Part shown: positions 2,985 through 15,910 of the stretch, piece by piece
Position numbering within the stretch: position 1 is the stretch's first letter
How the letters are laid out: every line of letters begins with the position of its first letter
Source of the DNA: Escherichia phage Sekstaphage-1
DNA length: 39,368 bases
Sequence record: OR545379
Strand: one strand, 5' to 3'
Program-made: the position numbers and the translations under genes
The notes under the pieces: generated by a model
The model's input: only the letters and a program-made list of their open reading frames with translations
Databases searched by the model: none
Told to the model about the DNA's origin: nothing

Positions 2985-5639
2985 ATGAACATCATCGAAA
3001 CTATCGAAAAGAACGACTTCTCTGAAATCGAACTGGCTGCAATCCCGTTCAACACTCTGGCAGACCATTACGGTAGCGCATTGGCTCGTGAACAACTAGC
3101 TTTAGAGCATGAGTCTTATGAGCTAGGCGAGCGCCGCTTCCTCAAGATGCTTGAGCGTCAAGCGAAAGCTGGTGAGATTGCAGACAACGCAGCCGCTAAG
3201 CCATTACTCGCTACGCTTCTCCCTAAGTTAACCGCACGTATCGTCGAGTGGCTCGAAGAGTACGCATCGAAGAAAGGCCGCAAGCCTAGCGCTTATGCTC
3301 CGCTCCAGCTACTCAAGCCGGAAGCCTCCGCGTTTATCACCCTGAAAGTTATCCTTGCGTCACTGACCAGCACGAGCATGACAACCATTCAGGCCGCTGC
3401 TGGTATGCTGGGGAAGGCCATTGAGGATGAGGCACGTTTCGGGCGCATCCGTGACCTCGAAGCGAAGCACTTCAAGAAGCACGTTGAGGAACAGCTTAAC
3501 AAGCGCCACGGGCAAGTCTACAAGAAAGCCTTTATGCAGGTGGTCGAGGCCGATATGATTGGTCGAGGTCTGCTTGGTGGCGAGGCGTGGTCTAGCTGGG
3601 ATAAAGAAACCACGATGCACGTAGGGATTCGCCTGATTGAAATGCTGATTGAATCCACGGGTCTGGTGGAATTACAGCGCCACAACGCAGGTAACGCAGG
3701 CTCTGACCATGAGGCACTGCAACTGGCCCAAGAGTACGTGGACGTATTAGCGAAGCGTGCAGGCGCTCTAGCGGGTATCTCTCCGATGTTCCAGCCGTGT
3801 GTCGTACCGCCGAAACCTTGGGTAGCAATCACCGGGGGCGGCTATTGGGCTAACGGTCGCAGACCTTTGGCACTCGTTCGCACTCACTCTAAGAAGGGTC
3901 TGATGCGCTACGAAGATGTGTACATGCCAGAAGTTTATAAGGCGGTCAACATTGCACAGAACACCGCATGGAAAATCAATAAGAAAGTCCTCGCGGTTGT
4001 CAACGAGATTGTGAACTGGAAGAACTGCCCTGTAGCAGACATTCCTTCGCTGGAGCGCCAAGAGTTACCGCCTAAGCCGGACGACATTGACACCAACGAG
4101 GCAGCACTAAAGGAGTGGAAGAAAGCCGCCGCTGGTATCTACCGCTTGGACAAGGCACGAGTGTCTCGCCGTATCAGCTTAGAGTTCATGCTGGAGCAGG
4201 CCAACAAGTTCGCAAGCAAGAAAGCAATCTGGTTCCCTTACAACATGGACTGGCGCGGTCGTGTGTATGCTGTGCCGATGTTCAACCCGCAAGGCAACGA
4301 CATGACGAAAGGTCTGCTGACCCTCGCTAAAGGCAAGCCAATCGGTGAGGAAGGTTTCTACTGGCTGAAAATCCACGGTGCGAACTGTGCGGGTGTCGAT
4401 AAGGTTCCTTTCCCTGAGCGCATCGCGTTCATTGAGAAGCACGTAGACGACATTCTGGCTTGCGCTAAAGACCCAATCAATAACACTTGGTGGGCCGAGC
4501 AGGATTCACCTTTCTGTTTCCTCGCGTTCTGCTTCGAGTATGCAGGCGTTGCTCACCACGGTCTGAGTTACAATTGCTCTCTGCCGCTGGCGTTCGACGG
4601 GTCTTGCTCTGGTATCCAGCACTTCTCCGCGATGCTCCGCGATGAGGTAGGCGGTCGTGCGGTTAACCTGCTGCCAAGCGAAACCGTGCAGGACATTTAC
4701 GGCATCGTTGCACAGAAAGTAAACGAGATTCTCAAACAGGATGCAATCAACGGCACACCTAACGAGATGATTACCGTGACCGACAAGGACACCGGGGAAA
4801 TCTCAGAGAAGCTCAAGCTGGGAACCTCAACGCTGGCGCAACAGTGGCTGGCATATGGTGTAACCCGTAGCGTAACTAAACGTTCGGTCATGACGCTGGC
4901 CTACGGCTCCAAGGAGTTCGGCTTCCGTCAACAGGTACTGGACGACACCATTCAGCCTGCGATTGACAGCGGTAAGGGCTTGATGTTCACCCAACCTAAC
5001 CAAGCGGCTGGCTATATGGCTAAGCTGATTTGGGACGCGGTGAGCGTGACCGTAGTCGCAGCGGTTGAGGCGATGAACTGGCTCAAGTCTGCCGCTAAGC
5101 TGCTGGCTGCTGAGGTCAAGGACAAGAAGACCAAGGAGATTCTGCGCCACCGTTGCGCGGTTCACTGGACTACGCCTGACGGCTTCCCGGTCTGGCAGGA
5201 ATACCGTAAGCCACTCCAGAAGCGTCTCGACATGATTTTCTTAGGGCAATTCCGTCTGCAACCGACGATTAATACCCTCAAGGATTCAGGCATTGATGCG
5301 CACAAGCAGGAGTCTGGCATTGCGCCTAACTTTGTTCACTCACAGGACGGTAGCCACCTCCGTATGACAGTCGTTTATGCTCACGAGAAGTATGGCATTG
5401 ATTCCTTTGCGCTCATCCATGACAGCTTTGGGACTATCCCGGCAGACGCTGGTAAGCTCTTTAAGGCTGTGCGTGAAACGATGGTAATTACCTACGAGAA
5501 CAACGATGTGCTGGCAGACTTCTATGACCAGTTTGCAGACCAGCTACACGAGACCCAACTGGACAAGATGCCTCCGCTTCCGAAGAAAGGAAACCTGAAC
5601 CTGCAAGACATTCTCAAGTCTGACTTTGCCTTTGCATAA
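2985..5639 (+). CDS. 1: Single-subunit DNA-dependent RNA polymerase (T3-type promoter specificity)
   Basis: 884 aa from the ATG at 2985 (MNIIETIEKNDFSEIELAAIPFNTLADHYG); collinear with T7 RNAP. The track ORF at 2892 is an in-frame upstream extension. Confidence 0.97.
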   Translation: MNIIETIEKNDFSEIELAAIPFNTLADHYGSALAREQLALEHESYELGERRFLKMLERQAKAGEIADNAAAKPLLATLLPKLTARIVEWLEEYASKKGRKPSAYAPLQLLKPEASAFITLKVILASLTSTSMTTIQAAAGMLGKAIEDEARFGRIRDLEAKHFKKHVEEQLNKRHGQVYKKAFMQVVEADMIGRGLLGGEAWSSWDKETTMHVGIRLIEMLIESTGLVELQRHNAGNAGSDHEALQLAQEYVDVLAKRAGALAGISPMFQPCVVPPKPWVAITGGGYWANGRRPLALVRTHSKKGLMRYEDVYMPEVYKAVNIAQNTAWKINKKVLAVVNEIVNWKNCPVADIPSLERQELPPKPDDIDTNEAALKEWKKAAAGIYRLDKARVSRRISLEFMLEQANKFASKKAIWFPYNMDWRGRVYAVPMFNPQGNDMTKGLLTLAKGKPIGEEGFYWLKIHGANCAGVDKVPFPERIAFIEKHVDDILACAKDPINNTWWAEQDSPFCFLAFCFEYAGVAHHGLSYNCSLPLAFDGSCSGIQHFSAMLRDEVGGRAVNLLPSETVQDIYGIVAQKVNEILKQDAINGTPNEMITVTDKDTGEISEKLKLGTSTLAQQWLAYGVTRSVTKRSVMTLAYGSKEFGFRQQVLDDTIQPAIDSGKGLMFTQPNQAAGYMAKLIWDAVSVTVVAAVEAMNWLKSAAKLLAAEVKDKKTKEILRHRCAVHWTTPDGFPVWQEYRKPLQKRLDMIFLGQFRLQPTINTLKDSGIDAHKQESGIAPNFVHSQDGSHLRMTVVYAHEKYGIDSFALIHDSFGTIPADAGKLFKAVRETMVITYENNDVLADFYDQFADQLHETQLDKMPPLPKKGNLNLQDILKSDFAFA

Positions 5640-12875: not shown

Positions 12876-14834
12876 ATGCTCGTAAGTGACATTGAGGCCA
12901 ACAACCTCTTAGAGAAAGTCACCAAGTTTCACTGTGGCGTCATCTATGACTACCGTGATGGTGAGTATCATAGTTATCGTCCGGGCGACTTCGGGGCGTA
13001 TCTGGATGCGCTGGAAGCCGAGGTGAAGCGAGGTGGGCTTATTGTTTTCCATAACGGTCACAAGTATGACGTTCCTACATTGACCAAACTGGCAAAGCTG
13101 CAATTGAACCGAGAGTTCCACCTTCCTCGTGAGAACTGTATCGACACCCTTGTGCTGTCACGCTTGATTCACTCTAACCTAAAGGACACCGATATGGGTC
13201 TTCTACGTTCCGGTAAACTTCCGGGGAAACGCTTTGGGTCTCACGCTCTGGAGGCGTGGGGTTATCGCTTAGGCGAGATGAAGGGTGAATACAAGGATGA
13301 CTTTAAGCGTATGCTTGAAGAGCAAGGCGAAGAATACGTTGACGGAATGGAGTGGTGGAACTTCAATGAAGAGATGATGGACTATAACGTTCAGGACGTT
13401 GTGGTCACTAAGGCTCTCCTTGAGAAGCTACTCTCTGACAAACATTACTTCCCTCCTGAGATTGACTTTACGGACGTAGGTTACACTACGTTCTGGTCAG
13501 AATCCCTTGAGGCCGTTGATGTTGAACATCGCGCTGCATGGCTACTCGCTAAGCAAGAGCGCAATGGATTCCCGTTTGACACGAAAGCAATCGAAGAGTT
13601 GTACGTAGAGTTAGCTGCTAGACGCTCTGAGTTGCTACGTAACTTGACCGAAACGTTTGGCTCGTGGTATCAACCTAAAGGTGGAACAGAAATGTTCTGC
13701 CATCCACGAACAGGTAAGCCACTACCTAAATACCCTCGCATTAAGATACCTAAAGTTGGTGGTATCTTTAAGAAGCCTAAGAACAAGGCACAGCGAGAAG
13801 GCCGTGAGCCTTGCGAACTGGATACCCGCGAGTACGTTGCTGGCGCTCCTTATACTCCAGTGGAGCACGTAGTGTTTAACCCTTCGTCTCGTGACCACAT
13901 CCAGAAGAAACTCCAAGAGGCTGGGTGGGTCCCAACTAAGTTCACCGATAAGGGTGCTCCTGTGGTGGACGATGAGGTACTCGAAGGAGTACGCGTAGAT
14001 GACCCTGAGAAGCAAGCGGCTATCGACCTCATTAAAGAGTACTTGATGATTCAGAAGCGAATCGGACAGTCTGCTGAGGGAGACAAGGCATGGCTTCGTT
14101 ACGTTGCTGAGGACGGTAAGATTCATGGTTCTGTTAACCCTAATGGAGCAGTTACGGGTCGTGCGACCCATGCGTTCCCCAACCTTGCGCAAATTCCGGG
14201 TGTACGTTCTCCTTATGGAGAGCAGTGTCGCGCTGCTTTTGGCGCTGAGCACCATTTGGATGGGATAACTGGTAAGCCTTGGGTTCAGGCAGGTATCGAC
14301 GCATCCGGCCTTGAGTTGCGCTGCTTGGCCCACTTCATGGCTCGCTTTGATAACGGTGAGTATGCTCACGAGATTCTTAATGGTGACATCCACACTAAGA
14401 ACCAGATGGCTGCTGAATTACCTACCCGTGATAACGCTAAGACGTTCATCTATGGGTTCCTCTATGGTGCTGGTGATGAGAAGATTGGGCAGATTGTTGG
14501 TGCTGGTAAAGAGCGCGGTAAGGAACTCAAGAAGAAATTCCTTGAGAACACACCTGCGATTGCAGCACTACGTGAGTCTATACAACAGACGCTTGTCGAA
14601 TCCTCTCAGTGGGTAGCTGGTGAGCAGCAAGTCAAGTGGAAACGCCGCTGGATTAAAGGTCTGGATGGTCGTAAGGTACACGTTCGTAGTCCTCACGCTG
14701 CCCTGAATACCCTACTGCAATCCGCTGGTGCTCTCATCTGCAAACTGTGGATTATCAAGACCGAAGAGATGCTCGTAGAGAAAGGCTTGAAGCACGGCTG
14801 GGATGGGGACTTTGCGTACATGGCATGGGTGCAT
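12876..14834 (+). CDS. 5: DNA polymerase gene 5, exon 1 (codons 1-653)
   Basis: Collinear with T7 gp5 up to ...[13 protein letters not shown]; the ORF then runs into intron sequence and stops after 7 unrelated codons. Confidence 0.95.
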
Positions 14835-15435
14835 AAACTATTTCATTGTGCACATTAAATCTGGTGAACTCGGTGAAACCCTACTGGGGCAATACCGAGC
14901 CAAGCCATAGGGAGGATATATGAGAGGCAAGAAGTTAATTCTTGAGGCCACTGAGACTGGCTGTATCATCCCTACGTCACACAAACTTAATGCCGATGGT
15001 TATTTCAGAAAGAAAACCAATGGCACATTGGAAATGTATCACAGAACGGTGTGGAAGGAGCATAACGGAGACATACCTGATGGCTTCGAGATAGACCATA
15101 AGTGTCGCAATAGGGCTTGCTGTAACATAGAACATTTACAGATGCTTGAAGGTACAGCCCACACTGTTAAGACCAATCGTGAACGCTACGCAGACAGAAA
15201 GGAAACAGCTAGAGAATATTGGCTGGAGACTGGATGTACAGGCATGGCACTCGGTGAGAAGTTTGGTGTGTCGTTCTCTTCCGCTTGTAAGTGGATTAGA
15301 GAATGGAAGGCGTAGAGACTATCCGAAAGGAGTAGGGCCGAGGGTGAGACTCCCTCGTAACCCGAAGCGCCAGACAGTCAACTCAAAGGCTGATGATATA
15401 GTCCGACACTCCTAGTAATAGGAGAATACAGAAAG
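14835..15435 (+). mobile_element. Group I self-splicing intron in the DNA polymerase gene, carrying an HNH endonuclease ORF
   Basis: 601 nt separate two in-frame polymerase segments; exon 1 ends in U (14834); GTGCAC at 14848-14853 can pair with the exon end GTGCAU giving the U-G pair typical of P1; the intron ends in G (15435). Confidence 0.85.
14920..15315 (+). CDS. Intron-encoded HNH homing endonuclease
   Basis: 131 aa with GGGAGGA ribosome-binding site; HNH/zinc motif DGFEIDHKCRNRACCNIEHLQMLEGTAHTVKTN; lies wholly inside the intron. Confidence 0.85.
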   Translation: MRGKKLILEATETGCIIPTSHKLNADGYFRKKTNGTLEMYHRTVWKEHNGDIPDGFEIDHKCRNRACCNIEHLQMLEGTAHTVKTNRERYADRKETAREYWLETGCTGMALGEKFGVSFSSACKWIREWKA

Positions 15436-15591
15436 GATGAAATCCAAGTAGGTTGCCGTACCGAAGAGATTGCTCAGGTGGTCATTGAGACAGCACAAGA
15501 AGCAATGCGCTGGGTTGGAGACCACTGGAACTTCCGGTGTCTTCTGGATACCGAAGGTAAGATGGGTCCTAATTGGGCCGTATGTCACTAA
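15436..15591 (+). CDS. 5: DNA polymerase gene 5, exon 2 (codons 654-704)
   Basis: Encodes DEIQVGCRTEEIAQVVIETAQEAMRWVGDHWNFRCLLDTEGKMGPNWAVCH, the C-terminus of T7 gp5; in frame with exon 1 once the intron is removed, giving 704 aa. Confidence 0.9.
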   Translation, partial: DEIQVGCRTEEIAQVVIETAQEAMRWVGDHWNFRCLLDTEGKMGPNWAVCH

Positions 15592-15610
15592 TTCTATAGG
15601 AGAAATTATT

Positions 15611-15910
15611 ATGGCTATCACCAAGAAATTTAAAGTGTCCTTTGATGTTACCGCAAAGATGTCGTCTGACGTTCAGGCAATCTTAGAGAAAGACATGCTG
15701 CATCTATGTAAGCAGGTCGGCTCAGGTGCGATTGTCCCCGATGGTAAACAGAAGGAAATGATTGTCCAGTTCCTGACCAACGGTATGGAAGGCGTGATGA
15801 CATTCGTAGTACGTACAGCATTTCGTGAGGCAATCAAGGACATGCACGAAGAGTATGCCGATAAGGACTCCTTCAAACTATCTCCTGCAACTGTACGGGA
15901 GGTGTTCTGA
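15611..15910 (+). CDS. 5.5: gp5.5 homolog (in T7 binds H-NS)
   Basis: 99 aa from ATG 15611 (MAITKKFKVSFDVTAKMSSDVQAILEKDMLHLCKQ...), near-identical to T7 gp5.5; AGGAGA ribosome-binding site. Confidence 0.9.
   Translation: MAITKKFKVSFDVTAKMSSDVQAILEKDMLHLCKQVGSGAIVPDGKQKEMIVQFLTNGMEGVMTFVVRTAFREAIKDMHEEYADKDSFKLSPATVREVF

Follow-up and report, generated by a model that had tools for sequence, protein, structure and literature searches.

A group I intron with an HNH reading frame between the motif C histidine and aspartate codons of the DNA polymerase gene of Escherichia phage Sekstaphage-1

The interrupted polymerase gene

The DNA analysed here, a stretch of 39,368 nucleotides from Escherichia phage Sekstaphage-1 (record OR545379; "the window" below), is a T7-like phage genome (Teseptimavirus) in which the coding sequence of the DNA polymerase is found in two parts. 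A 660-codon open reading frame (ORF; 12876-14858) encodes a T7-type DNA polymerase up to the residues ...FAYMAWVH, then continues through KLFHCAH and ends at a TAA codon, and the remainder of the polymerase, DEIQVGCRTEE...NWAVCH followed by a stop codon, restarts at 15436 and ends at 15591. When 12876-14834 and 15436-15591 are joined, the result is a 704-aa protein that aligns with the T7 gp5 chains of the PDB (6n7w_H and others) from residues 1-704 to residues 1-704 with zero gaps. Residue numbering therefore transfers one to one from T7 gp5, and the junction lies between H653 and D654. The features of the locus are collected in Table 1.

Residues 652-655 of the spliced product, VHDE, are motif C of the family A polymerases. 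An original prediction, made from the letters of the window alone, had placed the insertion exactly between the histidine and the aspartate of this motif and had suggested a comparison with T7 gp5 as a check; the gapless alignment puts the junction inside motif C, at precisely that point, and the contiguous CAT/GAT of intronless relatives agrees (here and below, a slash within a sequence marks the insertion point). The same prediction named Asp654 as one of the two metal-binding aspartates of T7 DNA polymerase, and the literature bears this out: D654 and D475 coordinate the catalytic Mg2+ ions in T7 gp5 (PMC8715121, PMC5984650). Its description of the preceding residue as a "catalytic His" holds in part, in that H653 is an invariant residue of motif C, but this residue is not a catalytic metal ligand.

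Table 1. Features of gene 5 and its insert in the Sekstaphage-1 window
Feature	Position	Strand	Details
Gene 5 (family A DNA polymerase), exon 1	12876..14834	+	codons 1-653; ORF list and gapless T7 gp5 alignment
Gene 5, exon 2	15436..15591	+	codons 654-704 and stop; first codons GAT GAA (D654 E655)
Group I intron, subgroup IA2	14835..15435	+	601 nt, phase 0; AAAC at start, omega-G at 15435
P1 hairpin	14829..14853	+	exon GUGCAU 14829-14834 with guide GUGCAC 14848-14853; 13-nt loop; U14834.G14848 wobble at 5' splice site
P3	14860-14866 with 15368-15374	+	Rfam alignment, hand-drawn structure, covariation
P4	14870-14875 with 14893-14898	+	Rfam alignment, hand-drawn structure, covariation
P5	14879-14882 with 14886-14889	+	Rfam alignment, hand-drawn structure, covariation
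P6	14899-14901 with 15309-15311	+	Rfam alignment, hand-drawn structure, covariation
P6a	14905-14908 with 15303-15306	+	Rfam alignment, hand-drawn structure, covariation
Shine-Dalgarno GGGAGG of intron ORF	14910..14915	+	start of P6a loop, 4 nt 5' of ATG; read directly
HNH-family homing endonuclease gene (predicted)	14920..15315	+	131 aa; P6a loop
P7	15317-15321 with 15399-15403	+	GACUA/UAGUC
P7.1	15322-15331	+	
GUA linker between P7.1 and P7.2	15332-15334	+	
P7.2	15335-15363	+	
P8	15375-15392	+	
P9	15409-15424	+	
Omega-G	15435	+	last intron base
P10	14841-14847 with 15436-15442	+	UUUCAUU (guide half) with GAUGAAA (first 7 nt of exon 2)
Ribozyme core halves	14860..14908 (5'), 15303..15424 (3')	+	

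The insertion point can be fixed to the base. Exon 1 ends in GTG CAT (V652 H653), so that the 5' junction (14834/14835) reads ...GCA TGG GTG CAT/AAACTATTTCATTGTGCAC..., and the 3' junction (15435/15436) reads ...ACAGAAAG/GAT GAA ATC CAA.... In the intronless Yersinia phage YpsP-G and in T7 the sequence is contiguous across CAT/GAT (...GGGTACAT/GATGAAATCCAAG...), and the flanks in the window match the ...ATGGCATGGGTACAT/GATGAAATCCAAGTAGG... of these two genomes, with 601 additional bases between CAT and GAT. The first base of the intron (A) differs from the first base of exon 2 (G), and the last base of the intron (G) differs from the last base of exon 1 (T); a shift of the insertion point by a single base in either direction is therefore impossible. 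A MAFFT alignment of the window with the intronless allele left the position of the gap ambiguous, and the junction was settled by direct reading of the flanks. One synonymous change, from GTA to GTG in the codon of V652 (window 14831), may go with the intron in T7-like hosts.

Structure of the intron RNA and its covariation across relatives

The insert matches the group I intron model of Rfam (RF00028) at positions 14825-15425 with a score of 44 bits (E 2.4e-9, or 3.8e-8 when the whole window is scanned), and this is the sole RNA family match in the whole window. The gathering score of the model is 50; that the match falls below it is probably due to the ORF of about 400 nt that interrupts P6, and against the same model the homologues at this site reach 30-61 bits. 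A secondary structure from P1 to P10 was drawn by hand from the window sequence; each of its 64 pairs, P7.1 and P7.2 included, is a standard one there. The interval to which the original prediction was attached, 14829-14853, is exactly the P1 hairpin. A 13-nt guide sequence (14841-14853) pairs with both exon ends, with the V652-H653 codons in P1 and with the D654-E655-I656 codons in P10. A mark of subgroup IA2 is a pair of extra helices, P7.1 and P7.2, that lie between P7 and P3' and are linked by G-U-A (PMC3428280); the window shows this arrangement, with GUA between P7.1 and P7.2.

The structure was compared across 12 other phages with an intron at this site, namely 13a, PC127, K1F, CHRF_10037, PT2, RCIP0053, DT115P1, SU7, ECBP2, PAS59, Vp_R1 and MQM1. 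The ORF was removed from each of their introns, and pairs were counted on a MAFFT alignment; Citrobacter phage NS1 was left out of the set because its intron copy looks rearranged at the start of the record. Across the relatives, 97% of the cells are paired, as against 38-44% when the partners are slid by one to three columns, a comparison in which the window-derived structure in itself favours the unslid register. That register does not, however, account for how many double changes the other sequences contain: compensatory changes, in which both sides of a pair differ, occur in 25 of the 64 pairs, as against 3-10 in the slid controls. None of 500 shuffles reached the observed percentage paired, either of two counts of both-sides changes, or the covariation score; on a fifth measure, the number of further pair types, 34 of the 500 reached the observed value.

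Compensatory changes are abundant in P3, P6a, P8 and P9 and are also present in P7.2, while P7 and P7.1 are invariant and hence uninformative for covariation. Overall, covariation backs the core helices P3-P9, with their P3/P7 pseudoknot. The helices that involve the exons follow the same pattern. P10 is 91% paired across the relatives and contains two compensatory pairs, and the U.G wobble of P1 is invariant in all 13 sequences. The exon base at position -6 covaries with the guide, forming a G-C pair in eight sequences and an A-U pair in four, so that P1 is GUGCAU/GUGCAC in hosts with a Val codon and AUGCAU/GUGCAU in hosts with a Met codon (the slash here separating the two strands). Given the Rfam E value of 2.4e-9 and the compensatory changes in 25 of the 64 pairs, the match over the P1 interval is not a matter of chance. 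The suggestion that the insert is of a self-splicing type is thus upheld by the Rfam match, the structure and the covariation, which together identify it as a group I intron.

The HNH reading frame and the distribution of the intron

The ORF in the P6a loop is intact, and its final codons and stop extend into the 3' strands of P6a and P6 and into J6/7. Residues 40-75 of the predicted protein match the Pfam family HNH_3 with 58 bits (cut-off 24.8; E 7e-16), and the protein is 78-100% identical to the annotated intron or homing endonucleases of K1F, 13a and VSG32. A T7-promoter-like stretch at 14891-14917, picked out by eye, was dismissed since its spacing is 3 nt too long.

Relatives of the intron-encoded protein also occur as free-standing genes. 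In a T3-like Klebsiella phage, an HNH gene directly follows an uninterrupted polymerase gene (...AWIHDEIQV...), and its product is 56% identical to that of the intron ORF over 90 aa. Gene 5.3 of T3-like phages resembles the intron ORF in encoding a homologous HNH protein, and it lies just downstream of an uninterrupted polymerase gene, but it differs in standing outside any intron and in encoding 100 aa rather than 131 aa, with the C-terminal region missing. No gene occupies the 5.3 position in the window, and homology between the intron endonuclease and T7 gp5.3, although expected, was not found in a direct comparison (E 0.18). Bonocora and Shub reportedly found in 2009 that one position in the intronless polymerase gene is the cleavage site of both T3 gp5.3 and I-TslI, the latter being the endonuclease of the polymerase introns of phages PhiI and W31; the free-standing HNH gene of the T3-like Klebsiella phage fits this account.

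A total of 743 phage records match the region, and only 55 of them contain at least 80% of the intron. Over positions 14300-15900 the closest intron-bearing record, Klebsiella phage VSG32, is 99.9% identical to the window, and the intronless T7 and Yersinia phage YpsP-G are about 95% identical to it in the exon parts. Presence of the intron varies between near-identical genomes; such patchiness in the sequence records is consistent with the behaviour of a mobile element.

In every case examined, the intron lies between the His codon of motif C and the Asp-Glu codons. The junction is AWVH/DE in 13a, K1F and PT2, ANVH/DE in RCIP0053 and DT115P1, DMH/DE in SU7, ECBP2 and PAS59, MMH/DE in Vp_R1 and NIH/DE in MQM1. 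Among the Autographiviridae, the hosts are found in Teseptimavirus, Kayfunavirus and Berlinvirus and among Aeromonas, Edwardsiella and Klebsiella phages; further hosts belong to Gordonclarkvirinae and to the 110-kb Grimontviridae Vibrio phages, and one is the unclassified phage MQM1. The intron-bearing polymerases of SU7, Vp_R1, DT115P1, RCIP0053 and MQM1 are only about 28-33% identical to T7 gp5, and these divergent polymerases come from Gordonclarkvirinae, Grimontviridae or unclassified phages. We see about an even chance that a single IA2 intron/HNH lineage has spread horizontally into family A polymerase genes in four or more phage groups, in each case at the His/Asp site of motif C, and that its guide has been re-tuned from host to host to match the Val, Met or Ile codon found there. 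We know of no systematic survey of the breadth of this intron lineage; single genome papers mention split polymerase genes.

The original prediction had also proposed that self-splicing introns and inteins tend to target invariant catalytic codons because such a target is conserved across relatives. This is the standard view (PMC3943268), and the occurrence of the same lineage at the same H/D site in polymerases as divergent as those just described argues in its favour.

Known relatives, alternative explanations and a model

The intron in the window is the same element as the one in the polymerase genes of phages PhiI and W31, which was already published in 2004; the identification with the I-TslI intron was made by way of a citing paper (PMC3428280). 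As that paper describes them, the PhiI and W31 polymerase introns are group I introns of subgroup IA2; the HNH endonuclease I-TslI is encoded in their P6a, and their insertion site is 881 in E. coli Pol I numbering (PMC3428280). Compared by published description, the PhiI and W31 introns (AY769989 and AY769990) show no qualitative difference from that of the window: all lie in a T7-type gene 5 and at the same site, all are IA2 introns with P7.1 and P7.2 joined by GUA, and all have an HNH ORF with its own ribosome-binding site (RBS) in P6a. Site 881 we take to be H881/D882 (Klenow numbering H881, D882, E883 in QVHDE) and, by the shared VHDE motif, T7 H653/D654.

Two further relatives can be compared directly. 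Phages 13a (EU734174) and K1F (DQ111067) have the same AWVH/DE junction as the window, and both records already give the polymerase coding sequence (CDS) as a join of two segments, between which an endonuclease gene is annotated. Their introns are 86% and 80% identical, respectively, to that of the window. K1F, of the genus Kayfunavirus, differs in that its P1 and P10 sequences are slightly different and in that its intron starts with UAAC, which creates an immediate stop codon.

Introns in other phage polymerase genes lie elsewhere. Those of SPO1, SP82, Bastille and Pf-WMP3 are found at E. coli position 674 and that of phiL7 at 676, and the first four encode the endonucleases I-HmuI, I-HmuII, I-BasI and I-PfoP3I, respectively (PMC3428280). 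These four resemble the element in the window in being HNH-bearing group I introns within conserved functional regions of phage family A polymerase genes (PMC3428280), but their site is in the fingers subdomain rather than in motif C, and they belong to other hosts and other intron lineages. The comparison with other phage polymerase introns that the original prediction called for thus places the window with PhiI and W31 at site 881, as far as the published descriptions of these two go, and apart from the introns at 674 and 676.

Taken together, the analysis makes it very probable that the insert is a mobile IA2 intron, still active or active until recently, which would splice at 14834/15436 to restore motif C and whose HNH protein would promote homing. 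The junction, the RNA architecture with its covariation, the intact ORF and its family, the distribution and the shared site in distant hosts were obtained directly, and what is said of splicing and of endonuclease action in Sekstaphage-1 is carried over from the intron family.

Three other explanations have to be weighed against this one. Insertion of a free-standing HNH gene might simply have fractured the polymerase gene or left it a pseudogene; there would then be no splicing, and the two pieces would act separately or the phage would be defective. The many GenBank records that list two "DNA polymerase" CDS and a "hypothetical protein" lend this some colour, but the 653-aa fragment would lack the catalytic D654, and the ORF is flanked by roughly 200 nt of conserved non-coding sequence, which fold into a group I core supported by covariation and carry a guide that fits the ends of both exons. 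Moreover, PhiI and W31 have close homologues that reportedly self-splice, to go by the title of the paper of Bonocora and Shub from 2004. These are also cited as DNA polymerase group I introns (PMC3428280), and a broken gene seems very unlikely on all these grounds. Inteins, like introns, are generally known to prefer the catalytic motifs of replication proteins, and the insert might on that account be removed by protein splicing rather than by RNA splicing. Two lines of evidence, however, rule this out. Reading on from exon 1 meets an in-frame TAA (14856-14858) after seven intron codons, and at the RNA level the insert matches the group I model and its helices covary. Nor would an intein account for a length of 601 nt, which is not divisible by three and would take any read-through out of the frame of exon 2, or for an endonuclease ORF with its own RBS and start codon.

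There is, finally, the matter of where such a group I intron would be cut out. The true splice sites might lie a few bases away from 14834/15436, and cryptic sites are possible in principle for group I introns, but no support for a shift was found. Only 14834/15436 restores both the frame and the invariant VHDE with flanks identical to those of T7, and the H/D junction is common to all 13 relatives. The U14834.G14848 wobble that closes P1, the omega-G at 15435 that ends the intron and the 7-bp P10 all point to the same two sites, which are those named in the original prediction, and displaced sites are accordingly very unlikely.

For the mobile group I intron, then, the following course of events can be proposed. 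The gene 5 transcript would fold into a ribozyme in which the guide sequence forms P1 with the final 6 nt of exon 1 and P10 with the initial 7 nt of exon 2. An external guanosine would attack after U14834, and the freed 3'-OH of exon 1 would then attack after omega-G15435. Ligation of the exons would restore the adjacent CAT-GAT codons, and with them an intact 704-aa polymerase with the catalytic Asp654. In mixed infections, the HNH protein translated from the intron may cut or nick intronless polymerase alleles near the site, and repair off the intron-bearing genome would copy the intron in, a process known as homing. Since the coding target in motif C is nearly invariant, the lineage would be able to enter the polymerases of several distant phage groups. 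It is also plausible, as the original prediction argued, that the host could not tolerate imprecise loss of the intron, since the product would be a 653-aa polypeptide without D654.

The finding is a correct re-discovery of a published element, and its value lies mainly in correct annotation. Gene 5 of Sekstaphage-1 should be entered as join(12876..14834, 15436..15591), together with an intron-encoded HNH endonuclease, and in many related GenBank records the polymerase has wrongly been entered as two fragments. The element opens no new question and is a textbook case of a mobile intron in the invariant catalytic codon pair of an essential gene. Its wide host range at one catalytic-site target would be modestly interesting, if indeed so far unsurveyed, and illustrates why such elements choose conserved targets.

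Features at the exon junction and the end of the endonuclease gene

In the 30 nt that flank the splice junction of the Sekstaphage-1 polymerase gene on each side, the sole difference from the intronless T7 and YpsP-G is a synonymous change in the V652 codon, from GTA to GTG (window 14831), and G14831 is paired with C14851 of the guide sequence in P1. This GTG, in a codon comparison that covers three intronless alleles only, could be an exon change that is adaptive for splicing, or else a co-conversion marker of homing.

Further into the intron, the HNH endonuclease ORF runs on into the ribozyme core: its final codons and TAG stop (window 15303-15315) share bases with the 3' strands of P6a and P6 and with the joining segment that leads into P7. 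The core therefore cannot fold in full independence of the translation of this ORF. A homologue of this ORF (56% identity) is found as a free-standing HNH gene at the 5.3 position of T3-like phages, whereas T7 has gene 5.3 at that position, which is unrelated to the intron ORF. The window has no gene at this position (15592-15612), with the stop codon of gene 5 at 15591 and the start of gene 5.5 at 15613.

Records of related phages

The intron copy of Citrobacter phage NS1 (MN715150.2 577-1779) has a damaged or rearranged appearance. Exon 1 carries an insertion directly ahead of the junction, the 3' strand of P7 is GATATACTCC, and the sequence beyond ...AGAAAG is something other than polymerase exon 2. 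Because this copy lies close to the start of the record, this appearance may be an artefact of assembly or permutation.

Many GenBank phage records, including OR287811, OR352934, MZ342906 and OM716005, give no spliced join for the interrupted polymerase: they list a pair of unjoined "DNA polymerase" CDS, or use the label "hypothetical protein". Some records supply the small exon 2 with an artificial start codon placed inside the intron. In Klebsiella phage RCIP0053, the Rfam tRNA family (RF00005) matches 4314-4391 of the phage's locus (L005) with 35 bits, on the downstream side of the polymerase region.

A second intron in polymerase motif B

In three relatives, motif B of the polymerase gene is split by another group I intron, distinct from the one in motif C. 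It is located at F524|I525 (T7 numbering), between K522 and Y526, with Rfam scores that reach 75 bits.

Group I introns in polymerase motif B (coordinates are those of each phage's locus)
Phage	Locus	Position
Aeromonas phage PT2	L004	about 1420-2097
Klebsiella phage RCIP0053	L005	about 1418-2092
Aeromonas phage MQM1	L007	1697-1948

The motif B intron is missing from the window. The motif B site would be an additional insertion site in family A polymerase, besides E. coli positions 674, 676 and 881.
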